DNA of 64,000 bases from an uncultured delta proteobacterium (GTDB lineage Bacteria; Myxococcota; Myxococcia; Myxococcales; Myxococcaceae). Position numbers and translations under genes: made by a program. The DNA lies in NCBI GenBank assembly GCA_963771175.1, contig CAVYSY010000024.1, positions 96,001 to 160,000 on the forward strand, in the 5' to 3' direction. The notes under the pieces were generated by a model. It was given only the letters and a program-made list of their open reading frames with translations. It had not been told where the DNA came from and did no database searches. How positions within the stretch are numbered: the first letter of the stretch is position 1; every line of letters starts with the position of its first letter. Below, one piece after another: positions 24,113 to 59,186 of this stretch.

Positions 24113-24436
24113 CGGTGTGCGGGGGACGGAGTGCTCGCAGGAAGCACTCCCCTCCTCCGACCGGGAAGGCCCTGCCTCCCCCGTCCGGTAGCCCATGACA
24201 TCCACCGGCAGGGTGCACGGCGGTCAGGGCTGCATTAGCGCCAGACAAAAGCTGAACAGGTCAGCCTGCCCCCACTGCGAGTAGAGGCTCGACCCTCCCC
24301 ACACAAACGTTTGCTGGAGACTTGCTGGCAGGCAATTCCTCGCATAGTCCCACGAGGAATTCCCGTGACCGGATTCGTGTCACACCTGTCCCGGCTGATA
24401 TGTCCATGGCAGGAAAAGCCAGGACGGCAAGTCTAC

Positions 24437-26671
24437 ATGCAACCTCATTCCAGTCCCCGAGCCCCCCTGGCCCGATCGACGCTCCTCAAGATGGGTGCGC
24501 GTGTCGGGGTCATCATCGCCCTCACCACCCTCATCAGCTATCTCCACATGCTGCACACCCTGCGCATCGAGGCTCTCGCGCAACTGGAGCATCATGTCTC
24601 GGAGCGCAGCCATGGCGAGCAGGCCCTCTTCGTGCTGGCGGAGGACAATCACGCCGTCCTCAAGAAGGCCCTGGAGGAGAGGATTCGAGCCCTCACCCTG
24701 GAGGAGGTCAACGCTCGCTTCGACCGCCTGTTCGTGCACCTGCCCGATGGCACGGTGCGCAACCGTCCCGAAAGCTTCGATGGCACCCGCATGCCGGGCA
24801 TCTTCGTCCCCAGGGGAGTGAGCCTGGACGCGGACCTGCGCCGCCGGATCCTGGCCTCGTATGACGTGCTCTCCCATTACGGGCCTGCCTTCCATACGCG
24901 CTTCACGGACACCTACGTCACGCTGCCGGAAGGGCCGCTCATCCTCTACTGGCCTGCTCGCCCCTCCTATACGCAGGACGCCGCGCCCGACTGGTCGCTC
25001 ATCACCATGCCGTACTTCCCCAGCAGCCGCCCCGAGAACAATCCGGAGAGGAAGACGGACTGGTCCCAGGTCTTCGTGGATGAGGTCGCCCAGAGTTCGC
25101 TGGTCACGGTCTCCACACCGCTGGACCTGGATGGCCGCCATGTCGCGACCCTCAGCCACGACGTCCTCCTCGAGCAGATGGTGGCCCGCACCGCCAACAA
25201 CCGGCTGCCCGGCGCTTACAACATCATCTTCCGCGACAACGGCGATCTCATCGCCCATCCCGAGCTGGTGACGACTGATGCCACCGGCGTCTACAACATC
25301 CTCGCCGACTCCGGGCCATCGGACGGCGCCATGCGGCTCGGTACCCCGGAGCAACAGGCCCACCTGCGAAACATCTTCGAACGGGTGAAGAACCGCTCGC
25401 CCAATCAGCGCGCGCTGGAGCTGGCGGAGCACGACGAGCACCTGGCCGTCGCACAGCTCCAGGGCCCCGGATGGAACTTCGTCACCGTGCTGCCCGAGAG
25501 CGAGGTATCCCGGCCCGCCTTCCAGGCCGCGCGTTACGTCCTGCTGCTCGGCGTGCTCTCGCTGCTGCTGGAGCTGGTCATCATGTACTGGGTGCTCCAG
25601 GAGCAGATCACCCGTCCGCTTCTCGCCCTGACCCGAGCCACCGACCGGGTGGCCGCTGGAGACTTCAAGGTCGAGCTCGACACCTCACGCAAGGACGAGC
25701 TGGGGCAGCTCGCCCAGTCCTTCCAGCTCATGACCGACAAGGTCCAGCATCGCGAGGAGGAGCTGCGCCAGGCCAACGAAGGATTGGAGCAGCGCGTCGA
25801 GGAGCGCACCCGCGAGCTCAAGGACGTCCATATCCAGCTCGTCAAGACGGCCCGGCAGGCCGGCATGGCGGAGATCGCCACCAACGTGCTGCACAACGTG
25901 GGCAACGTGCTCAACAGCGTCTACACCTCCGCCCAGGTCGCCAAGGAGCGCATCTCCGGCATGCGCCTGGAGCACGTGGGCCGCGTCGCCAACATGCTCC
26001 AAGAGCGCCAGAGCGACCTCTCCACCTTCATCACCGAGGACGAGCGGGGCCGCCACCTCATGCCCTTCCTCAGCAAGCTCGGACAGAACCTGGTGGATGA
26101 ACGCCAGGAAATCGTCTCGCTGCTCGATGACGTGGGCCGCTACACCGAGCACATCGGCGACATCGTCAAGGTGCAACAGAATTACGCCAAGGTTCCCCGA
26201 CTCCACGAAGCGGTCAATCTGGCCGACCTGGTGGAGGACGCCCTGCGCATCAACTCGGCCGGGCTCACCCGCCACCAGGTGAAGATTCAACGCCACCTGG
26301 CCTCCCTCCCCCAGGTGCTGACCGACAAGAACAAGCTGCTGATGATTCTGGTCAACCTGGTCAGCAACGCCAAGTACGCCATGGACGATGTGCCGGTCGC
26401 CGAGCGGATTCTGGACGTGAAGATGGAGCACCTGCCCACCGACCGCGTCCGCATCTCCATCCATGACGATGGCATGGGCATCGCACCGGAGATGCTCACG
26501 CGCATCTTCCAATATGGCTTTACCACCCGCGAGGAAGGACACGGCTTCGGCCTGCACTCCAGCGCCCTCGCCGCCCAGGAGTTGGGCGGCTCCCTGTCCG
26601 TCCACAGTGACGGGCCTGGCAAGGGCGCCACCTTCACGCTGGAAGTTCCCTTCTATCCGTCCAGCAAGTAG
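24437..26671 (+). CDS. Sensor histidine kinase (Cache-like sensor, HAMP, HATPase)
   Basis: Two TM helices, HAMP DELGQLA, H-box ATNVLHNVGN, NLVSNA and GHGFGL. Confidence 0.92.
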   Translation: MQPHSSPRAPLARSTLLKMGARVGVIIALTTLISYLHMLHTLRIEALAQLEHHVSERSHGEQALFVLAEDNHAVLKKALEERIRALTLEEVNARFDRLFVHLPDGTVRNRPESFDGTRMPGIFVPRGVSLDADLRRRILASYDVLSHYGPAFHTRFTDTYVTLPEGPLILYWPARPSYTQDAAPDWSLITMPYFPSSRPENNPERKTDWSQVFVDEVAQSSLVTVSTPLDLDGRHVATLSHDVLLEQMVARTANNRLPGAYNIIFRDNGDLIAHPELVTTDATGVYNILADSGPSDGAMRLGTPEQQAHLRNIFERVKNRSPNQRALELAEHDEHLAVAQLQGPGWNFVTVLPESEVSRPAFQAARYVLLLGVLSLLLELVIMYWVLQEQITRPLLALTRATDRVAAGDFKVELDTSRKDELGQLAQSFQLMTDKVQHREEELRQANEGLEQRVEERTRELKDVHIQLVKTARQAGMAEIATNVLHNVGNVLNSVYTSAQVAKERISGMRLEHVGRVANMLQERQSDLSTFITEDERGRHLMPFLSKLGQNLVDERQEIVSLLDDVGRYTEHIGDIVKVQQNYAKVPRLHEAVNLADLVEDALRINSAGLTRHQVKIQRHLASLPQVLTDKNKLLMILVNLVSNAKYAMDDVPVAERILDVKMEHLPTDRVRISIHDDGMGIAPEMLTRIFQYGFTTREEGHGFGLHSSALAAQELGGSLSVHSDGPGKGATFTLEVPFYPSSK

Positions 26672-26869
26672 AGCAAGCAGGCTCGCCATGCTAGGTTCCC
26701 CAGGAGGCCTCGTGACGAGCAATCCCTTGCATGCTCCCATGAGGAATTCCAATGACGGGTTCTATGTCAATTGGGTCATCGTCGACCGACCGAGGGACAT
26801 GCACTGGCTTACGCAGGGGGCGCCAGACCCGCATGCCCGCGGACAGCGAAGCCATGTCGGCAAGTCGCC

Positions 26870-29095
26870 ATGCATCCTTCTTCCAGCCCAACAGCGCCCC
26901 TGGCCCGCTCGACACTCCTCAGGATGGGCGCGCGCGTTGGAGTCGTCATCGCGCTGACCACCCTCGTCAGCTACTTCCACATCCACCACTCCCTGCACGC
27001 CGAGGCCCTCGCGCGGTTGGAGCAGCACGCCACTGAGCGCGGCCAGCGAGAAGAAGCCATCTTCCTGCAGGCCGAGGACAATCACGTCGTCCTCAAGGAG
27101 GCCCTGGAGGAGAGAATCCGAGCCCTCTCCGAGGAGGAGATCAACTCCCGCTTCGACAAGCTGTTCGCGCGGCTACCGGACGGCACGATCCGCCGCCACC
27201 GCGAGGGCTTCGACGGCACGCGGATGGTGGGCCTCTTCGTGCCCAGGGGCGTGAAGGTGGACACCGACATGCGCCGCCGGATCCTGGCCTCGTATGACGT
27301 CCTCACCCAGTACGGGCCCGCCTTCCATGTCCGCTTCACCGATACCTTCATCACGCTGCCGGAAGGGCCGCTCATCCTCTACTGGCCCTCGCGCCCCACC
27401 TTGACCCTGGATTCCGCGCCCACGGAGTCGCTCATCGCCCAGGAGTACTTCCCCATCAGCCTCCCCGAGAACAACCCGGAGAGGAAGACGGCGTGGTCCG
27501 GCATCTACATGGATGAGTTCGTCAAGAGCTCGCTGGTCACGATCTCCACGCCGCTGGACCTGGACGGTCGCCATGTCGCGACGATCAGCCATGACGTCAC
27601 CATCGAGGAATTGATGGCGCGCACCGTCAACGACCACCTGCCCGGCGCCTACAACGTGCTCCTTCGCGACAATGGCGAGCTCATCGCCCATCCCTGGCTG
27701 AAGCTGAAGGGGGCCACCAGCAACGCCGCGCAGCCCGGGGTCTCCCCCGTGCAACTCGACACCCCGGAGCAGCAGGCCCACCTGCGAAGCCTCATCGAGC
27801 AGTTGAAGAACCGCTCGCCCGAGCAGCGCATGCTGGAGCTGCCGGAGTACGGTGAGTACCTCGCCGTCGTGCGGCTCCAGGGCCCAAGATGGAACTTCGT
27901 CACCGTGCTGCCCGAGAGCGAGGTATCCCGGCCCGCCTTCCAGGCCGCGCGCTACGTGCTCCTGCTGGGTGTGCTGTCCCTGCTGCTGGAGCTGGTCATC
28001 ATGTACTGGGTGCTCCAGGAGCAGATCACCCGTCCGCTTCTCGCCCTGACCCGAGCCACCGACCGGGTGGCCTCTAGTGACTTCAAGGTCGAGCTCGACA
28101 CCTCACGCAAGGACGAGCTGGGGCAGCTCGCCCAGGCCTTCCGGCTCATGGCCGACAAGGTCCAGCACCGCGAGGAGGAGCTGCGACAGGCCAATGACGG
28201 ACTGGAGCGGCGCGTCGAGGAGCGCACCCGCGAGCTCAAGGACGTCCATGAGCAGCTCGTCAAGACGGCTCGGCAGGCCGGCATGGCGGAGATCGCCACC
28301 AACGTGCTGCACAACGTGGGCAACGTGCTCAACAGCGTCTACACCTCCGCCCAGGTCGCCAAGGAGCGCATCTCCGGCATGCGCCTGGAGCACGTGGGCC
28401 GCGTCGCCAACATGCTCCAGGAGCGCCAGAGCGACCTCTCCACCTTCATCACCGAGGACGAGCGGGGCCGCCACCTCATGCCCTTCCTCAGCAAGCTCGG
28501 ACAGAACCTGGTGGATGAACGCCAGGAAATCGTCTCGCTGCTCGACGATGTGGGCCGCTACACCGAGCACATCGGCGACATCGTCAAGGTGCAACAGAAT
28601 TACGCCAAGGTTCCCCGACTCCACGAAGCGGTCAATCTGGCCGACCTGGTGGAGGACGCCCTGCGCATCAACTCGGCCGGGCTCACCCGCCACCAGGTGA
28701 AGATTCAACGCCACCTGGCCTCCCTCCCCCAGGTGCTGACCGACAAGAACAAGCTGCTGATGATTCTGGTCAACCTGGTCAGCAACGCCAAGTACGCCAT
28801 GGACGATGTGCCGGTCGCCGAGCGGATTCTGGACGTGAAGATGGAGCACCTGCCCACCGACCGCGTCCGCATCTCCATTCATGACAACGGCATGGGCATC
28901 GCACCGGAGATGCTCACGCGCATCTTCCAATATGGCTTTACCACCCGCGAGGATGGGCACGGCTTCGGCCTGCACTCCAGCGCCCTCGCCGCCCAGGAGT
29001 TGGGCGGCTCCCTGTCCGTCCACAGTGACGGGCCTGGCAAGGGCGCCACCTTCACGCTGGAAATTCCCTTCTACCCGGCCCAGGAGACGAAATGA
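26870..29095 (+). CDS. Sensor histidine kinase, tandem paralog
   Basis: Same architecture as the upstream kinase, with a near-identical C-terminal half. Confidence 0.92.
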   Translation: MHPSSSPTAPLARSTLLRMGARVGVVIALTTLVSYFHIHHSLHAEALARLEQHATERGQREEAIFLQAEDNHVVLKEALEERIRALSEEEINSRFDKLFARLPDGTIRRHREGFDGTRMVGLFVPRGVKVDTDMRRRILASYDVLTQYGPAFHVRFTDTFITLPEGPLILYWPSRPTLTLDSAPTESLIAQEYFPISLPENNPERKTAWSGIYMDEFVKSSLVTISTPLDLDGRHVATISHDVTIEELMARTVNDHLPGAYNVLLRDNGELIAHPWLKLKGATSNAAQPGVSPVQLDTPEQQAHLRSLIEQLKNRSPEQRMLELPEYGEYLAVVRLQGPRWNFVTVLPESEVSRPAFQAARYVLLLGVLSLLLELVIMYWVLQEQITRPLLALTRATDRVASSDFKVELDTSRKDELGQLAQAFRLMADKVQHREEELRQANDGLERRVEERTRELKDVHEQLVKTARQAGMAEIATNVLHNVGNVLNSVYTSAQVAKERISGMRLEHVGRVANMLQERQSDLSTFITEDERGRHLMPFLSKLGQNLVDERQEIVSLLDDVGRYTEHIGDIVKVQQNYAKVPRLHEAVNLADLVEDALRINSAGLTRHQVKIQRHLASLPQVLTDKNKLLMILVNLVSNAKYAMDDVPVAERILDVKMEHLPTDRVRISIHDNGMGIAPEMLTRIFQYGFTTREDGHGFGLHSSALAAQELGGSLSVHSDGPGKGATFTLEIPFYPAQETK

Positions 29096-29607
29096 GCAAC
29101 TGTGACAACAAGAGGCGGATCCTCGTCATCGACGATTCCGAGGCCATCCACACGGACTTCCGCCGGATCCTCTGCTCGGAGCAGCGCAAGGGTCAGGACG
29201 ATCTCGACCTGTTGGAAGAGGCGCTCTTCGGCACGGCTCCCTCTCGCGGCGATTCCTCCAACGATCCGGAGTTCGAAGTGGATTCGGCATTCCAGGGACA
29301 GGAGGGGCTTACCAAGGTCCGGGCGGCCCTGGAGACGGGCCAGACCTACTCCCTGGTCTTCCTCGACTACCGGATGCCGCCCGGCTGGAACGGCGCCGAG
29401 ACCCTACGGCGCCTGCGGCAGGTGGCTCCCTCGCTGCGGGTGGTGCTCTGCTCGGCCTACTCCGACTACTCCTGGGAGTCGATGCTCAAGGAGTTCGGCC
29501 AGTCCCAGTTGCTGAAGGAGCTGCGAAAGCCTTTCAACGGCCAGGAAGTGCGCCAGTTGGTGCACAACCTCACCGCGCAGCAGGGCGGCTCTCACGCGCC
29601 GGCGTGA
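29092..29607 (+). CDS. Single-domain response regulator (receiver with acidic insertion)
   Basis: VIDD, FLDYRMPPG, CSAY and KPF motifs. ATGA overlap with the kinase. Confidence 0.88.
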   Translation: MSNCDNKRRILVIDDSEAIHTDFRRILCSEQRKGQDDLDLLEEALFGTAPSRGDSSNDPEFEVDSAFQGQEGLTKVRAALETGQTYSLVFLDYRMPPGWNGAETLRRLRQVAPSLRVVLCSAYSDYSWESMLKEFGQSQLLKELRKPFNGQEVRQLVHNLTAQQGGSHAPA

Positions 29608-31972
29608 GCCAGTAGCGCTGACGCTGGAAGGGATAGGTGGGCAGGGTGACCCGACGCCGCGCATACGGGGCGTCGTAGGCCGCCCAGTTCACCTCCACGC
29701 CCCTCACGTACAGCCCGCCCAGCGTCTCCAGGATACGAGGCCACTCCGCACGAAGCTCCAGGCACACGTCCACGCCGTGGGCCTTCAGCACCTTCTCCGC
29801 CTCTTCCCACTGCGCCGCCTGCTGCCCTCGCGCCCTGCGCCAGTACTCCTCCTGGCTCGCCTCCGCTCCGGGCGCCGTCCCACTCTCCGCGCTCACCAGC
29901 AGCACCTTCGGCACCGCGTACGGCCCCTGCTTCCCCGGCTTGCCCACCGCCAGTCTCAGCCCCTCCTCCAGGCTGAACACTCCCGCCTCCACTCCCGCCA
30001 CGTACTCCCCTACTCCCTGCCCCACCACCGCCCTCGGCTCCACTCCCCACTCCCTCCACATTCGCGCCTGCGCCCACTCCAGCGCGAACACCGCCGCCTT
30101 CCCGTATCCCTCCTCCTTCAGCAGCGCTGACTCCTCCCCGTACAGCACCTGCTCCAGCCGCTTCTCCAGCACTCCCTTCAGCCCCTGCGCACACCTCTCC
30201 ACTGCCTCCCTGAACGCAGGCTGCGTCTCGTACAACTCCCTCCCCATTCCCGCGTACCGCTCTCCCTCTCCTCCGAATACGAAGGCCACCTTCGGCGCCG
30301 TGGCCCCCGTCCTCCCCGCCACCACTCCCTCCACCTCTCGTCCGCTCGCCGCCGCTTCCAGCCTCTCTCGCACCTGCTGCGCGCTGCCGCCCACCACCGC
30401 CAGTCGGTGCTCGAAGTGCGCCCTTCCCGTCGCCGCCGTGAAGCACACGTCTCCCACCTCCGCTCCGCCCTCCGCCAGCGCCCGCGCGTAACGGCCCGCC
30501 TGCACTCGCAGGGCCTCCGCGCCGCGCCCCGATACCACCAGCACGTGCTCCGGCCTCTCCACCTCCCGCGTCCGCACGGGCATCGACGGCGCCTCCTCCA
30601 ACACCACGTGTGCCAACGTGCCGGTCCTCCCGTACGAGGTCACTCCCGCGATGCGCCGGCCCTGCGTCGGCTCCCACGGCGTCAGTTCCACCGGCACCTT
30701 CACCCCCATCCCCTTCCAGTCGATGTTCGGATTGGGTTGCTTCAGATGCAGGTGCGCCGGCAACTGCTTGTGCTGCATCGCCAGCACCACCTTCATCATT
30801 CCCACCACGCCCGAGGCCGCCTCCGGGTAGCCGAGGTTCGTCTTCACCGAGCCCATCCACAGCGACTCCCCGCCCTTCCTCCCCTCCTTCAGCACCGACC
30901 ACATCGCCTCCGCCTCGATGGGGTCTCCCAGCGCCGTCCCCGTGCCGTGCGCCTCCAGGTAGCTCACCTCGGCCGGTGACACTCCCGCGCCCTGCAATGC
31001 CTGTCGGATGACGGATTGCTGTGCCACCCCATTCGGCACCGTGAACGAGCTGCTCGGGCCGTCATGCCCCACCGCCGAGCCTCGAATGACCGCCAGGATG
31101 TTGTCTCCCTGCGCCTGGGCCTCCGACAGCCGCTTGAGCACCAGCACGCCACAGCCCTCGGCTCGCCCGAACCCATCCGCCGAGGCATCGAAGGTCTTGC
31201 AGCGTCCGTCCGCCGAGAGCGCCCCGCTGCAGGAAAGATAGACACTCACCTCCGGCGAGAGGATGAGGTTCACCCCCGCCGCCAGCGCCACCGCGCACTC
31301 GCCGTTCCGCAAGCTCTGGCAGGCCAGGTGCAGCGCCACCAGCGACGACGAGCACGCCGTGTCCACCACCAGGCTCGGCCCCTGAAAGCCAAACAGATAC
31401 GACAGCCGCCCCGAGATGGCGCAGTTCGCTCGCGCGCCAATGAAATACGGGTCGATGCCCTCCAGGCCCCCCGCCTCCAGCGCGAGCTGCCCGTAATCGT
31501 TGTTCATCGCCCCCACGAAGACGCCCACCCGCTCGCGCCGGCCTCGCTCCACCGCGTGTCCGGCCCGCTCCAGGGCCTCCCAGGCCACCTCCAATACCAG
31601 CCGCTGCTGCGGATCCATGCTCTCCGCCTCGCGCTGCGAGAGGCCGAAGAACCGTGCGTCGAACCGGTCCACGTCCTTCAGGAAGCCGCCCCGCCGAGTC
31701 CGCATCCTCCCCTTCGCCTGGGGATCCGGATCGTAGAAGGCCTCCGCGTCCCAGCGCTCCGGGGGAACCTCGCTGGTGGCATCCACTCCCTTCACCAGCA
31801 GGTCCCAGAGGGCCTCCGGGCTCTCCACTCCTCCGGGTAGCCGGCAGGCCATCCCGATGAGCGCGATCGGCTCGCGACGGGCGGCCTCGGCCTGCTCCAC
31901 CCGCGCCTCCAGCTTGCGGATCTTCACCAACTGCTGCTGCAGCAGTTGGCGATAGTTGATTTCCTCGGACAT
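29570..31972 (-). CDS. Type I PKS gene 3: docking domain, variant KS, inactive AT; no ACP or TE
   Basis: DTACSSS and HGTGT are intact, but KTNLGYPEAASG replaces GHLE. The AT remnant has GQGVGE. The protein ends just after YPFQRQRYW. Confidence 0.9.
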   Translation of the reverse strand: MSEEINYRQLLQQQLVKIRKLEARVEQAEAARREPIALIGMACRLPGGVESPEALWDLLVKGVDATSEVPPERWDAEAFYDPDPQAKGRMRTRRGGFLKDVDRFDARFFGLSQREAESMDPQQRLVLEVAWEALERAGHAVERGRRERVGVFVGAMNNDYGQLALEAGGLEGIDPYFIGARANCAISGRLSYLFGFQGPSLVVDTACSSSLVALHLACQSLRNGECAVALAAGVNLILSPEVSVYLSCSGALSADGRCKTFDASADGFGRAEGCGVLVLKRLSEAQAQGDNILAVIRGSAVGHDGPSSSFTVPNGVAQQSVIRQALQGAGVSPAEVSYLEAHGTGTALGDPIEAEAMWSVLKEGRKGGESLWMGSVKTNLGYPEAASGVVGMMKVVLAMQHKQLPAHLHLKQPNPNIDWKGMGVKVPVELTPWEPTQGRRIAGVTSYGRTGTLAHVVLEEAPSMPVRTREVERPEHVLVVSGRGAEALRVQAGRYARALAEGGAEVGDVCFTAATGRAHFEHRLAVVGGSAQQVRERLEAAASGREVEGVVAGRTGATAPKVAFVFGGEGERYAGMGRELYETQPAFREAVERCAQGLKGVLEKRLEQVLYGEESALLKEEGYGKAAVFALEWAQARMWREWGVEPRAVVGQGVGEYVAGVEAGVFSLEEGLRLAVGKPGKQGPYAVPKVLLVSAESGTAPGAEASQEEYWRRARGQQAAQWEEAEKVLKAHGVDVCLELRAEWPRILETLGGLYVRGVEVNWAAYDAPYARRRVTLPTYPFQRQRYWLTPARESRPAAR
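29755..30975. repeat. Near-identical ~1.2 kb duplicate of ~35080-36300 (KS C-terminus plus inactive AT)
   Basis: Long identical runs, e.g. CTCCAGGCACACGTCCACGCCGTGGGCCTTCAGC, occur at both loci. Confidence 0.9.
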
Positions 31973-31980
31973 CTCCGACC

Positions 31981-49468
<17,488 letters not shown>

Positions 49469-49798: not shown

Positions 49799-50971
49799 TC
49801 AGTTAACTAGTTTTTCAATTTCTTCCGGGCTAAAGCCTGCCTCGGCGAGAATTTTGTGATTGTGCTGTCCAAGCGAGGGCGGCGGACGCAAAGGCGTTTC
49901 ACCCAGACGCAGGGGCGTGAGCAGGTGGGTCACCTTTCGCCCACGTTGGGTGTCTTCCGACTCCACGAAGAGGCCGCGCGCGCGGAGTTGTGGATCCTCC
50001 AATACCTCGTCACCTTCGAGCACCGGCTCCACGCACAGGTCCTTCCCCGCGAAGCGCTCCTTCCAATGCGCCAGCGGGTGCTCGGCGAAGAGGCGAGCGA
50101 ACTCCGCCTTCACCCGCGCGCCGGCCTCGCCCAGGTCGTACGCGTCCGCGAGCAGGTCTGGCCGTCCCAGCACCTCGCACACACCGGCGAGGAACTTGGG
50201 CTCCAGCGCGCCCACCGACAGGTAGCGGTCGTCCTGGGTGCGGTACAGGCCGTAGCAGGCGTAGCCACCGTTGAGCGCCTCGCGGCCGCGCCGCAGCGGC
50301 GGGCCCTGCTCGCCCATCACCAGCCGCGCCGCCAGGTGCATGTGGAGGAAGGCCATGGCGCCGTCCGTCATGGACACGTCCACGAAGCGGCCCTGCCCGG
50401 TGCGCTCGCGCTCGTGGAGCGCCGCGAGGATGCCCACCAGCGCGAAGAGGCTGCCGCCGCCGATGTCCCCGAGCTGCACGCCCGGGAAGGCCGGGGCGCC
50501 GCCCGCCTCGCCCCCGTAGGCCAGCACGCCCGCGCGCGCCGCGTAGTTGAGGTCGTGCCCGGCCTTGAGGCGGTCCGGCCCCGTCTGCCCGTAGCCGGAG
50601 ATGGCGCAGTAGATGAGCCGCGGGTTCTGCTCGTGCAGCACGGACCAGCCCACGCCCAGCTTGTCCATGACGCCGGGGCGGAAGCTCTCCACCAGCACGT
50701 CGTAGCCGCGCGCCAGCCGCTTGAGGGCCTCGCGTCCCTCGGGGGACTTGAGGTCCAACACCAGCGAGCGCTTGTTGCGGTTGAGCCCGTAGTAGAGCGC
50801 GCTCTCGTCGTCGCGAATCGGCGGCATCTGGCGGATGTAGTCGCCGCCGTGGGGGTCCTCGAGCTTGTCCACCGTGGCACCGAGATCGGCGAGCACCAGC
50901 GTGGCGTAGGGGCCTGGCAGCAGGCGCGACAAATCCAGGACCTTCAGTCCGGAGAGGGGGAGCGTGTTCAT
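49799..50971 (-). CDS. CaiB/BaiF family CoA-transferase / alpha-methylacyl-CoA racemase-like
   Basis: DLSRLLPGP, NRNKRS, FRPGVM, SGYGQTGP and GHDLNY motifs. Confidence 0.92.
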   Translation of the reverse strand: MNTLPLSGLKVLDLSRLLPGPYATLVLADLGATVDKLEDPHGGDYIRQMPPIRDDESALYYGLNRNKRSLVLDLKSPEGREALKRLARGYDVLVESFRPGVMDKLGVGWSVLHEQNPRLIYCAISGYGQTGPDRLKAGHDLNYAARAGVLAYGGEAGGAPAFPGVQLGDIGGGSLFALVGILAALHERERTGQGRFVDVSMTDGAMAFLHMHLAARLVMGEQGPPLRRGREALNGGYACYGLYRTQDDRYLSVGALEPKFLAGVCEVLGRPDLLADAYDLGEAGARVKAEFARLFAEHPLAHWKERFAGKDLCVEPVLEGDEVLEDPQLRARGLFVESEDTQRGRKVTHLLTPLRLGETPLRPPPSLGQHNHKILAEAGFSPEEIEKLVN

Positions 50972-51078
50972 GGCGGAGGGGGGGAGTCTCAGGGGGGAGG
51001 TAAAAGAAGCGGCGCGGCCCCGGAGAGGAGCACGCGCCGCCCGAGGAGCACGCGCCCGAGGGCGCGTCTCCGGTGAGT

Positions 51079-51409
51079 CTAGCCCAGCAGCTTCGCCAGC
51101 TTCATGGCGAGGCCCATGTCCATCGGCTTGAACTTCAGCTTGCCCTGCATGGCGGCCATCTGCGCGTTGAGCTGCTTGGCGCGGATCTTCACGAAGTCTG
51201 TCGTCGCTGACGGTGATGGTCATCTTCGGGGTGCCCTCGGCGCCCTTGGAGACCCAGTTCTCCGTCTTGGTGCAGTCCAGCGTCCAGGTGCCGCCGTTGT
51301 CGCCGGTGATGTTGAAGTGGATGACCGAGTTGATGTCCTTGGCCAGCTCCGGCTTCTGCTGCAGCGTCGCCGGGATGTCCTTCTCGAGGATCTCCTGGGA
51401 ATTCGCCAT
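51079..51409 (-). CDS. SCP2 sterol/lipid-binding domain protein (frameshift ~51200)
   Basis: FNITGDNGGTW at the N-terminus; QMAAMQGKLK...MGLAMKL follows in the shifted frame. Confidence 0.82.
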
Positions 51410-51499
51410 GGCACTCTCCGTTTGATGGATTGACTGGTGAATCAACAGTCGGATGGGACCGTAGTGACGAGGGCTGGGCAGGTCAAGCGCGCGGAAGCA

Positions 51500-55335: not shown

Positions 55336-56076
55336 TTGAGCTCCTCCTCGATGGCGGCCTGGACCTTCTTCGCCCACCCCTGGACGCGCTGGCCCTCGGC
55401 CGGGTCATACCCCACGCTCCCCTGGGGCACCTTGAGGATGGCCTCGTGCGCCTTCTTCTCCTCGCCCTCCGCGAGCTGCGTCTCGGCCAGGTACAACGCA
55501 GGCCCTCTGCTGCTCGGGGTGCTTGGCGATGACCTTCTGGAAGAACGAGGCGGACTTCTTCAGGTCCCTCTTGGGCCAGGGTAGCTCATAGTAGTAACGC
55601 CCCTTGGCCAGCAAAGGTCCCCCGCGCTCATACATCGGGTCGATCTTCAGCGCGGCGTCCAGGCGCTCGTTGTATTTGCCCTCCAGCCCCTGGCCGAGCG
55701 CCGTGAGGATGCCCACCGCCTGCGAGTAGGCGCCGACGCCCAGGGCCGCGAAATACTGACCCTCGACGCGCTCCGGCGCGAGCTTCCGGGCCTTGTCCCC
55801 GAGCTCCCACGTCTGCTTGCCCAGGTTCTTCTTCACCTTGGGGTCCGAGGCGTTCCCCTCCGCCTGCCAATTCCGGAGGCGAGCCGCGCGCCACAGCACC
55901 TCGAAGTCCTCGGGCGAGGCCTTCAGCGCCTGGGTCAGGGCCTCGTCGAGCTGCTTCACCGCGGCGGCCTCACCCCGACGGGCGTACAGCGCGTCCCACG
56001 ACGACAGCTCCTCAGGGGTGGCGGCCAGGGCCGGCAACGTCACCAGAACCAGAACAGCAAGCAAAATCGAGCGCAT
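55332..56076 (-). CDS. Secreted TPR-like protein (frameshift ~55500)
   Basis: Signal peptide and helical repeats (GRYYYELPWP). ATGA overlap with the ligase after frame correction. Confidence 0.75.
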
Positions 56077-56207
56077 AAGCGGGTGTTAGCATGCGCTTTC
56101 GCTCACCAGCAATACGAGCAACCAGACGACAGAGGCGGTACCCGTGGTGCGTGAAACACCTCAGGTACCGCCCCGTTTGGTAGCGGACATGGACCCTGTC
56201 CTCGCGG

Positions 56208-56962
56208 TCAGGCCGCGTCCACCGCCGACTCAGGAGAGGGCTGCTCCTCGTCCTGGTTGAAGGCCTCGAGGTAGCGCTGCGAGGAAGTGCTTCGTCTTCA
56301 GCTCCACCTGGCGCACGCGCTCGCGCGACACGCCCCAGCGCTGGCCCAGCTCCTCCAGCGTGCGCGGCTTGTCCTGCGTGAGCCGCTCCTGGAGGATGTC
56401 CCAGCCCAGGTCGCCAATGCGCTTGCGCACCTTGGCGAGCGCCTCCTGGACCTCCGTCGTTCTGCTCGCGCGACCAGGAAGATGTCCTGCGGCGAGGGGC
56501 CGCCGTCCTCGAGCCGGTCGAGGAAGGTGGTCTCGCCGTCCTCGTCGATGGTCGCGTCCAGCGAGAAGTCCGTCATGCTGCCGCGCTCGGCCTCGCCGCC
56601 GCGCACCTGGCTGCGGTTGTCCTTGAGGTAGCGGGTGATGTAGGCGCGGATCCACCACACCGCGTAGGTGGCGAAGCGCACGTTCTTCTTCGGATCGAAG
56701 TGCTCGATGGCCTTCATCAGGCCGACGTTGCCCTCCTGGATGAGGTCGTCCAGGCGGGCGCCGCGGTTGGCGAACTTCTTCGCCACCGCCACCACGAAGG
56801 CCAGGTTGGACTGCGCGAGCATCTGTCGCGCGGACTCGTCGCCCTTGCGGGCGCGCCGGGCCAGCTCGTACTCCTGCTCGCGCGTCAGCTGCGGGTGGCC
56901 CCCGAGGTGACGCAGGTAGTGCGACAGACCCTCTGCCGCGTACTTCTCGTCGTGTTCGCCAT
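56208..56962 (-). CDS. sigD: Sigma-70 family RNA polymerase sigma factor, myxobacterial SigD-like (several frameshifts)
   Basis: DLIQEGNVGL, FATYAVWWIR and TLEELG..GVSRERVRQVE. Sequence and tatA/ligase neighbourhood resemble M. xanthus sigD (from recall, not searched). Confidence 0.75.
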
Positions 56963-57165
56963 GTTTCGCGTCCTCCGTTCCCTGTCGTAGCGGACGCGCT
57001 CGCCCCCAGGTCCGCGTCCACATCCTCTAGGACGCTCAACGGGCGAATGGGTTTCTCATTCCGTTCCAGGGTATTTCGCCCGCTTACCCTGCACAAGCAG
57101 GTCAGGCCACGGCCGGTCGTCACGATGGCGTCACGGCCCCGGGGGCATCGCGCATCCGCGTACGA

Positions 57166-58592
57166 CTAAGAACGCTCGGGCGCGGGAAAGATTTTCCTCG
57201 GATTGAGCAGATCCTGAAGGATCGAAGAAGCCCTTCAGCCGGCGCTGCAGCTCGAGGACGGCTCGGGCTGCTCCAGCGCGAGGTAGTCGCGCTTGGCGTG
57301 GCCCACGCCGTGCTCGCCGGTGATGGTGCCGCCCATCTAGACGGTGAGCTCCAGCATGCGCTGGATGGCCGTCTCCACCAGGGCGCGCTGGTGCGGGCCC
57401 TCGTAGAGGATGTTGGCGTGCAGGTTGCCGTCGCCGGCGTGGCCATACGTGGCCACGGGCAGGCCCAGCTCCTCGCCCATGGCCTTGAGCGCCTCGATGA
57501 TGTCGGGAATGCGCGAGCGGGGTACCACGATGTCCTCGGAAATCTTGTGGGGCCGGAGGGTGCGCAGGGCGCGGGAGACGACGCGGCGGGCGGCCCAGAG
57601 CTTCTCGCGCTGGGACTCGTCCTGGGCCACGAGCACCTCCTTGGCGCCGTGCTGCTCGCAGATCTCCCCGAGCTGGGCGAGCTCCGCGAACAGGCCCTCC
57701 TCCATGTTGCCGTCCACCTCGGCGATGACGGCCGACGCCGGCGCCCGGCGGGAAGTGGAAGCCGCGACCGTCCACCGCGCGCAGGGCCACGTCGTCGATG
57801 AGCTCCAGCGTGCGCGGGAGGATGCCGGCGGCGAGCACGGCGGACACGGCGCGCGCGGCGGTCGAGCACCGAGTCGAAGACGACCAGGGCCGTCTTCACG
57901 TGCCGCGGCAGGGGGATGAGCTGGAGGGTGATCTCCGTGGCCACGCCCAGCGTGCCCTCGGAGCCCACGAAGAGGCCCACCAGGTCGTAGCCGGCCACGC
58001 CCTTGATGGTGCGGCGGCCCACGCGGAGCACCTCGCCGTCGGGCAGCACCCACTCCAGGCCGATGACGTAGTCGCGGGTGACGCCGTACTTGAGCGCGCG
58101 CGGGCCGCCGGCGTTCTCCGCCACGTTGCCGCCCAGCGTGCAGAACTCCCAGGAGTTGGGGTCCGGCGGATAGAAGAGGCCCTGCGCCTCCACGGCCTTC
58201 ATCAGGTCGCCGGTGACGACCCCCGGCTCCACCACGGCGGTGAGGTCCTCCGCCGGAGACGGAGAGGATGCGGTTCATCCGCTCCAGGCTCACCGACACG
58301 CCGCCCATGCAGGGGCAGCGAGCCGCCGCTCTTGCCGCTGCGCGCCCCACAGGGGTGAAGGGCACGCCGAGCGCCTGGCACGTCCGGAAGACGGCGCGAC
58401 ACCTGCTCGGCGCTCTCGGGGAACACCACGAGGTCCGGCGGGTAGACGCCGGTGTCCGACTCGTCCTTGGAGTAGTTCCGCGCAGGGTGGCCTCGTCGCG
58501 GCGCACCTGGCCGGGCGAGAGCACCTCCACCAGCGCCGTGCAGGCGCGCTCCAGGAGCGGCGGGCGTCGACGCGGGGAAACTGCGCGCTCAT
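57166..58592 (-). CDS. FAD-linked oxidase, GlcD/D-lactate dehydrogenase family (many frameshifts)
   Basis: YPPDP, TLGGNVAENAGG, KYGVT, GSEGTLG, GHAGDGNLH and GEHG motifs. Confidence 0.85.
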
Positions 58593-59186
58593 CGCTTCGT
58601 GGCCCCCAGCCGCGCCCACAGCTCGCGGCGCAGGGCCCCGTCGCGGCGCAGCCGGCCCTCGTAGGCCTCCGCGTGGGTGCGGGCGTCGCGCTGGCGGTCT
58701 CCCCGGATGCGCAGGCACGCCTGCTCCGCCTCGATGATGCAGGCGGTGGCGGGGCTGCCCAGCACGCGCGCGAGCGACGCGGCCACCTCGCGCGCCAGGT
58801 CCTCCTGGAGGATGAGCCGGTGCGCGAAGCAGTCCACCAGCGCGGACAGCCGGCCGAAGCCCACCACCCGCTTCGCCGGCACGTAGGCCACGTGCGCCCG
58901 GCCCTCGAAGGGCAGCAGGTGGTGCGGGCACATGGAGTGGAAGCGCAGGTCCGTCACCACCACCATCTCACCGGACGAGCTCGGCGGCGCCGGGAAGGTC
59001 TCGCCCAGCGCCTCCTCGGGCGTCCGGGCGTAGCCGTCGAGGAACTCGCTCCGCCCAGGCCTCGGCCACGCGCTCGGGCGTGTCCGCGAGGTTGGGGTCG
59101 TTCTTCAGCGGCAGGCCCGCCGCGCGCAGGAAGTCCTGGATGGCGGCGGCCATGGCCACGCGATCCGGCTTTCGGGGGTTTCGCAC
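58589..59186 (-). CDS. folE: GTP cyclohydrolase I (frameshifts)
   Basis: DTPERVA, SMCPHHLLPF, RLILQE and C..IRG motifs. Confidence 0.88.

Follow-up and report, generated by a model that had tools for sequence, protein, structure and literature searches.

A conserved Cys-His-Tyr ketosynthase at the end of a thioesterase-less myxobacterial polyketide synthase: a candidate for chain off-loading

The last gene of a thioesterase (TE)-less polyketide synthase (PKS) in an uncultured delta proteobacterium of the Myxococcaceae encodes a ketosynthase (KS) in which the second catalytic histidine is a tyrosine, and this change is conserved throughout its family. The gene lies at 29570..31972 (- strand) of the window, by which we mean the whole 64,000-nucleotide stretch analysed (positions 96,001 to 160,000 of contig CAVYSY010000024.1, assembly GCA_963771175.1). 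What would a KS do at the end of an assembly line, with neither an acyl carrier protein (ACP) nor a working acyltransferase (AT) of its own? Judging from its sequence, we propose with moderate confidence that it would accept the chain from the ACP of module 3 (ACP3) and off-load it, most simply by hydrolysis to a free acid, without elongating it. The odd terminal-KS ending of this kind of cluster is already in print; what is new is the Cys-His-Tyr triad variant of a non-elongating terminal KS. Release from TE-less modular PKSs is only partly understood and the set of non-condensing KSs is growing but small; here a naturally conserved Cys-His-Tyr KS sits in a very small three-gene line for which an expression system and products exist (PMC13454183).

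The terminal gene encodes 800 amino acids from an ATG at 31970-31972 that is preceded by GGAG. All aligned orthologs start at this point with MSEEIN, and the coordinates given by the first-pass annotation of this DNA proved exact. The reading frame is open from a GTG at 31984, from which residues are numbered here (as in P0001), and 29570..31984 translates with no internal stops; all coordinates of this gene and of the PKS are on the - strand. The protein begins with a docking coil, MSEEINYRQLLQQQLVKIRKLEAR (31874..31972), nearly invariant in 21 aligned sequences, followed by a KS domain (residues 38-464, 30593..31873) that is complete by Pfam (PF00109 at 38-289, PF02801 at 297-414 and the C-terminal extension at 417-504). 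The nucleophile motif DTACSSS (31343-31363) carries Cys211 (31352-31354), HGTGT (30935-30949) carries the first catalytic histidine, His346, and Lys381 of the KxNxG motif (30842-30844) is kept. Where the canonical GHLExAAG is expected the protein reads GYPEAASG (30809-30832), with Tyr386 (codon TAC, 30827-30829) at the place of the second catalytic His. Two further loops are altered: the NQDG loop reads AVGHDGPSSSFT (31040-31075; N to G306, Q to H307, L to F314) and the GFGG/GTN loop reads GVTSYGRTGTLAH (30608-30646; F to Y451, F/M to R453, S/G to T454, N to L457). All five motifs had been picked out in the first-pass annotation and are present where it placed them. It had also described a stand-alone KS, a label that does not fit, as a KS-AT linker, an AT remnant and a post-AT linker follow. 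The KS-AT linker (residues 480-549, 30338..30547) is CurL-like/RhiE-like by Pfam. The AT remnant (residues 568-682, 29939..30283) is the N-terminal third of the domain, covering positions 2-116 of the 319 in the Acyl_transf_1 profile; its nucleophile Ser is replaced by Gly (GHSxG reads GQGVG, in GQGVGE at 30005-30022) and the C-terminal AT half is mostly deleted. A variable, indel-rich stretch (29747..29938) comes next, evolving neutrally with a ratio of non-synonymous to synonymous substitution rates (dN/dS) of ~1, and then a conserved post-AT linker (29606..29746) that aligns to CurL residues 890-936. Far from being a bare KS, the terminal protein carries a dead AT remnant. CurL KS-AT (4mz0, E = 6e-226) is the closest solved structure in the 60 best of 122 PDB matches; a search of the ESM Atlas with the KS part returned generic KS clusters only. 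Pfam finds no ACP (PP-binding), TE or other release domain in the terminal protein. Compared with an elongating Cys-His-His KS it has the Cys, the first His and the Lys and lacks the second His, a downstream ACP and a working AT, and on Pfam and motif evidence the earlier statement stands that a normal elongation cycle is impossible for this docking-coil-bearing terminal KS.

How rare is the tyrosine? A word-seeded search retrieved 23 proteins of the same architecture and motifs, 19 of them full-length (727-824 aa) and four cut by contig ends. These relatives are 63-93% identical to the terminal KS and come from Archangium gephyra, A. violaceum, A. minus, A. lansingense, A. primigenium, Cystobacter fuscus, Vitiosangium and metagenome-assembled genomes (MAGs). 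Tyr occupies the second-His column in 24 of 24 family members (the 23 database relatives and the window) and in one of 1144 other KS domains, the remainder having His (1139), Asn (two), Ser (one) or Phe (one). The background consisted of 1187 KS domains from 390 retrieved proteins aligned to the family profile, 20 of them truncated at this column; over the full set there are 1139 His, 24 Tyr (23 from the family), two Asn, one Ser and one Phe. The 150 best matches of a profile search of 1.84 billion representatives were giant multi-KS synthases and served only as a background sample. All five non-family exceptions belong to AT-less synthases. The sole other Tyr is in the C-terminal KS of P0391 (residues 6124-6535 of 6735 aa, AT-less), which like the terminal KS is the last domain of its protein, with only a linker remnant after it. 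It differs in being of the trans-AT type, in reading HSNGG instead of HGTGT and in having neither the GHDG nor the SYGRTG signature, and its score with the family profile is 296 bits, where family members reach 808-969 bits. Another of the exceptions, P0379, has Asn at the second-His column in its last KS.

Other parts of the active site are equally constant. Cys211, His346, Lys381 and the Gly at the AT-Ser position (G657) are invariant in 21 of 21 aligned sequences, and the residues around Cys211 vary among the relatives (DTACSSS, DTACASS, DAACASS, DSACASS). GY[P/A]E and S[Y/F]GR[T/A]GT are common to all aligned sequences except P0022, and AVGHDG is found in 20 of the 21, one relative having AAGHDG. 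P0022 (833 aa, from a 3.4-kb metagenome contig) is the only aligned sequence with a canonical GHLE; it has an N-terminal ACP and joins a KS of the module-3 type (KS3) to a tail of the terminal type (KS4) that ends like the terminal gene (RYWLT). It was rejected as a His-bearing ortholog and read as module 3 or as a chimera across the shared repeat, being either an assembly chimera or a natural recombinant without the dehydratase (DH)-ketoreductase (KR)-ACP part and the Tyr KS. Orthologs with a canonical GHLE, or running on into an ACP or TE, would speak against the first-pass annotation: the orthologs keep the Tyr and none runs on into an ACP or TE, and in 120 longer proteins (1408-4020 aa) none of 311 K-x-N-x-G motifs had a residue other than His and no fused ACP/TE form was seen. 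In a full-text literature search no paper combined 'ketosynthase' with 'Cys-His-Tyr', other wordings of a His-to-Tyr change not having been searched.

Could the terminal KS still condense, with Tyr386 standing in for His? One more extension or iteration would then take place with ACP3 or another ACP reloaded by AT2 or AT1, the ATs of modules 2 and 1. The Cys, the first His and the Lys are kept, and module 3 already relies on an AT from elsewhere (there are two Ser-bearing ATs for three ACPs). We nevertheless consider this improbable: 1139 of the 1144 other KS domains have the second His, the adjoining loop is changed too (F to Y, N to L, Arg at the GFGx position) and no ACP lies downstream. 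Work on 6-deoxyerythronolide B synthase (DEBS) points the same way, as H346A and K379A each left ~1% product, indicating that a KS tolerates little change, although the second His was not among the residues covered (PMC7327777).

Where did the terminal KS come from, and is its unusual active site maintained or decaying? A contig scan gave 73 loci, of which eight with intact flanks (L003, L004, L005, L006, L008, L009, L011, L012) were used together with the window. Left out were loci at contig ends (L001, L002, L013), frameshifted loci (L007, L023), loci matching module 3 (L010, L014) and 58 further loci (L015-L022, L024-L073) that are 43-54% identical and represent ordinary KS-AT modules of other phyla and no orthologs of the terminal gene. 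The KS phylogeny that the first-pass annotation had called for was built from KS2, KS3 and the terminal KS (27 rows). It places the terminal KS in a clade of its own (SH-aLRT, the Shimodaira-Hasegawa-like approximate likelihood ratio test, 99), sister to KS3. Over the N-terminal 290 residues its stem has a length of 0.36 compared with 0.16 for KS3, and its tips are short, like those of KS2 and KS3. Because there is a single KS4 clade sister to KS3, with a long stem and short tips, the duplication that separated them must predate the sampled genera. The source paralog would be the module-3 KS with its canonical GHLE and the same dead AT remnant (35266..37194): a duplicate of this KS and AT remnant would have arisen, had its active site rebuilt and then been conserved. 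Over 36 pairwise comparisons per group, dN/dS has a median of 0.162 in the terminal KS, 0.154 in KS2 and 0.241 in KS3, and the N-terminal part of the terminal KS, which is free of gene conversion, gives 0.157. Between paralogs within one genome the N-terminal part shows a dN of 0.27-0.33 and a dS of 0.41-0.72. These values point to a burst of amino-acid change and then constraint. Thirty-four positions are invariant in nine of nine terminal KSs and their residues absent from 18 of 18 KS2/KS3 sequences, among them G183-N187, I190, S247, Y249, S253, G254, D270, G306, H307, F314, Y386, T449, Y451, R453 and T454. We take these clade-specific positions to fall in active-site loops and in the two gating loops, going by FabF and modular KS structures.

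The rest of the protein behaves differently. In the AT remnant dN/dS is ~0.35 in the first part and 0.93 and 1.13 in the middle, where there are large indels; the post-AT linker gives 0.22 and 0.33. This fits a scaffold, and the AT stub and linkers would serve only as such. Is the whole protein then a structural or gatekeeping cap, a KS-AT remnant kept for architecture or for positioning ACP3, with an unlinked hydrolase or spontaneous hydrolysis freeing the acid? The stub and linkers, at dN/dS 0.2-0.4 and ~1 in the middle part, are clearly scaffold-like. A cap leaves unexplained, though, why Cys211, His346 and Lys381 are invariant amid variable flanks, and why 34 clade-specific substitutions, mostly in active-site loops, arose and were then frozen. 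We therefore hold this explanation to be unlikely; if the terminal KS were a mere structural cap, the finding would be a minor curiosity.

A second line of evidence for selection comes from gene conversion. The first-pass annotation had described the altered motifs as sitting in a block nearly identical to module 3. This is correct from about residue 330 on and does not extend to the N-terminal part: in 30-codon windows the terminal KS and module 3 of the window share 89-100% nucleotide identity over residues 332-721 and only 62-92% over residues 31-331. The near-identical DNA stretches are 29606-30990 and 34900-36210. In trees of the linker and AT remnant the two paralogs pair by genome in three of the seven genomes that yielded both tails (the window, L012 and L011, with support of 98, 100 and 95), and because they group in this way the tails of the terminal gene and module 3 appear to evolve in concert, homogenised by gene conversion. 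What has been spared? Over residues 330-467 of the window, 18 amino-acid differences are left between the terminal KS and module 3; 12 of them lie at positions invariant in the nine terminal KSs, and at two more (P387, L457) the terminal KSs share no residue with KS2/KS3. With 14 of 18 residual differences at such positions, selection evidently retains the active-site differences despite conversion. Near-invariant in the orthologs, under a dN/dS of 0.16 and persisting in the conversion tract, GYPE and SYGRTG, and GHDG with them, are evidently selected and not products of decay, as the first-pass annotation had suggested for the first two. The locus is a clear case of selection holding active-site differences inside a gene-conversion tract.

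What product should such a line deliver? By the usual rules its chain should have a methyl branch, a module-2 hydroxyl and an E-2-enoyl end; the prediction is based on AT1 (VASH) with full reduction, an A-type KR in module 2 (KR2) and a B-type KR (LDD) with a DH (His, DxxxQ) in module 3 (KR3, DH3). A KR with the LDD motif followed by a DH gives an E-2-enoyl chain, which is unable to close a delta-lactone directly. These rules matter for the proposal, made in the first-pass annotation, that the terminal KS is a cyclase releasing its chain by lactonisation in the manner of SalC or TAS1. With the E-olefin expected from KR3, direct delta-lactonisation is geometrically disfavoured, and neither SalC nor TAS1, nor any close sequence kinship to them, is seen among the 60 best of the 122 PDB matches. 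A terminal non-elongating KS in a TE-less line would suit such a role, the module-2 hydroxyl is delta to the thioester and KS-catalysed lactonisation has precedents (PMC12291444).

The best guide to the product is bgc34 of Archangium violaceum SDU8, described as having three unusual features: two ATs in module 1, an AT-less module 3 and a terminal KS that replaces the TE (PMC13454183). Expressed in a Myxococcus xanthus chassis, it yielded two new branched unsaturated fatty acids and a known one, tracked at 254 nm (PMC13454183). The window matches all three features and, like bgc34 in its Archangium host, has three PKS proteins, a terminal KS and no TE; A. violaceum orthologs of both the terminal KS (76% identity) and PKS-B, the second PKS protein, are found. 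Since the three features match and A. violaceum carries both genes, the window appears to hold the same kind of cluster, in a strain or species other than SDU8 (the best match to the window, at 93% identity, is an Archangium MAG). The main text of the bgc34 paper makes no mention of the His-to-Tyr change, the dead AT stubs or the role of the terminal KS (PMC13454183). A pan-genome study reports an unknown type 1 PKS conserved in Archangium and Melittangium (PMC12766979), which may be the same cluster. Because bgc34 yields branched unsaturated fatty acids, free-acid release fits and a cyclase or lactonising role does not; ring release of the SalC, TAS1 or NghhA type is not what the literature on bgc34 describes, its products being acids and not lactones (PMC13454183). 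Direct delta-lactonisation was rejected on the KR3 type and these reported products, and we regard a cyclising KS as very improbable.

The word 'unsaturated' raises a further question. Module 2 has a KR and no DH, yet the products are unsaturated and were tracked at 254 nm, for which a conjugated diene would be suitable. Could the acyl-Cys undergo a vinylogous dehydration or a double-bond shift before hydrolysis? Such cryptic tailoring has parallels in the dehydratase role proposed for the idm/idp terminal KS and in SalC, which is said to form an alkene (PMC11686505). DH3 could, however, simply act twice, and we think tailoring by the terminal KS doubtful.

Coming back to off-loading, the proposed sequence of events is the following. 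The terminal KS would be the final member of a cis-AT-type PKS that consists of three proteins and has no TE, and its N-terminal coil would dock on the C-terminal tail of PKS-B (tail 31984-32148 and ACP3 32149-32355, together 31984..32355), which makes ACP3 the presumed chain donor. A C-terminal tail meeting a coiled N-terminus is the usual docking arrangement of PKS proteins; both protein A and protein B have ~55 residues beyond their final ACP, protein B and the terminal KS alike have a coiled N-terminus, and the PKS-B stop codon and the terminal KS start are no more than 15 bases apart. ACP3 would pass the finished chain to Cys211, a transfer we expect to persist because the Cys, first His and Lys are invariant and the docking coil is present. 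With the second His changed to Tyr, the gating loops altered, no AT Ser and no ACP, no malonyl unit would be decarboxylated or condensed by the terminal KS. Since condensation would thus be impossible, the acyl-Cys intermediate would be off-loaded, the simplest route being hydrolysis to the free acid. That Cys211 is acylated and that the chain leaves from there are predicted steps, whereas the anatomy, conservation and terminal position of the KS, the selection on it and the absence of an ACP, TE or active AT are observed. More specifically, the terminal KS might itself be an acyl-S-Cys hydrolase with a Cys-His-Tyr triad and remodelled gating loops that replaces the TE of a cis-AT PKS, and it might also dehydrate the module-2 hydroxyl (vinylogously); this we put forward tentatively. 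If true, it would define a new functional KS class, a 'KS as thioesterase', fixed in one myxobacterial family.

Several considerations weigh against off-loading by the terminal KS. The orthology with bgc34 is suggested by architecture and by the A. violaceum orthologs (76%), not by the SDU8 sequence itself, and the main text of the bgc34 paper reports no deletion or mutant of the terminal KS (PMC13454183). In heterologous expression a thioesterase of the host could have freed the acids, or the ACP3-bound product could have hydrolysed spontaneously. As a hydrogen-bond donor, the hydroxyl of Tyr386 might in principle take over from His, making condensation formally possible. Finally, PKS-A and PKS-B of the window each contain a frameshift; if these are real, the assembly line is dead in this strain.

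How does the terminal KS compare with known non-elongating KSs? The KS0 of enacyloxin reportedly acts in a 'dual transacylation' release. Like the KS0 domains of trans-AT PKSs, the terminal KS keeps its Cys, would not condense, stands at the end of a protein and of the line, and would pass the chain on. It differs in its cis-AT lineage, being sister to the module-3 KS, with CurL KS-AT as closest structure and with AT1 and AT2 integrated and active-looking in the same line. KS0 domains are typically without the HGTG His (PMC7327777), whereas here HGTGT is intact and the other His is replaced. Nor does it resemble a KSQ loading decarboxylase, as Cys211 is present and not changed to Gln. Comparable in role are SalC and the KS of NghhA, and the terminal KSs proposed for EbeG (PMC12291444) and for IdmP/IdpK (PMC11686505): all have a KS fold at the end of a pathway and release or transform the chain without elongation. 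The SalC-type KSs differ in making beta-lactones or rings, while the acids here are expected to be linear and one His is naturally absent.

The upstream PKS proteins A and B occupy 31981..49468 by Pfam and motif reading. Protein A reads KS1, AT remnant (GHGVGE), a second linker, AT1 (GHSMGE, VASH), DH, enoylreductase, KR (LDD) and ACP; protein B reads KS2, AT2 (GHSVGE, HAFH), KR (no LDD, Trp motif), ACP, KS3, AT remnant, DH, KR (LDD) and ACP. The module-3 AT remnant (GQGVGE) covers profile positions 2-115 only. Only two of the ATs look active and three ACPs have to be supplied, so an AT elsewhere in the line must load module 3. Dead AT remnants with Ser changed to Gly are thus also seen at 35266-35607 (module 3) and ~47450-47810 (module 1), the latter only ~30% identical to the module-3 and terminal remnants. 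The PKS has no TE, and neither a TE nor a discrete AT was found in 25 other window ORFs (open reading frames) chosen by third-position GC, in six further window ORFs or, at four orthologous loci (L003, L004, L005, L009), in the five ORFs scanned that follow the terminal KS. The two frameshifts are of 1 nt each, in PKS-A inside KS1 (~48780-48800) and in PKS-B inside AT2 (~39730-39760), and past each indel the sequence picks up again in another frame with good homology to orthologs. PKS-B is a single intact ORF of ~3000-3300 aa in eight other genomes, and two long-read 'contig_1' assemblies (L007 and L023) are riddled with breaks; for these reasons the frameshifts may be assembly errors.

On the other side of the terminal gene, a response regulator and two paralogous HAMP histidine kinases (24239-29607, + strand) converge on it, the response-regulator ORF overlapping its 3' end by 38 bases. 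Pfam identifies these neighbours again on the downstream side in L003 and L004, and L007, L011 and L012 have ORFs of like size and strand. C. fuscus (L009) lacks them, and the KS gene of A. minus (L005) is directly followed by a GMC oxidoreductase. Upstream of the PKS, the ORF at 49802-51445 (- strand) combines an SCP2-like N-terminus (Pfam SCP2, residues 29-85) with a family III CoA-transferase starting at MNTLPLSGL (residue 159). The 70 residues joining the two parts look out-of-frame and are Arg/Ala-rich, and the ORF is probably two genes or the site of another indel, the transferase orthologs having 390 aa. The transferase, which some sources call alpha-methylacyl-CoA racemase, is conserved across the Myxococcaceae. 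The idea that it releases the product as a CoA ester was dropped, as it looks like a widely conserved neighbour of the cluster: its 390-aa orthologs are 70-91% identical in Myxococcus (81% in M. xanthus), Corallococcus, Pyxidicoccus, Stigmatella and Hyalangium, and conservation across so many myxobacterial genera argues that it is not part of the cluster. Further along, 55405-59104 (- strand) contains seemingly truncated ORFs: a sigma-70 ORF with only regions 1.2 and 2 (56301-57026), an FAD_binding_4 match that begins at profile position 68 (57123-58235) and a GTP cyclohydrolase I match that begins at profile position 34 (58592-59104). They fit with either more indel errors or decay.

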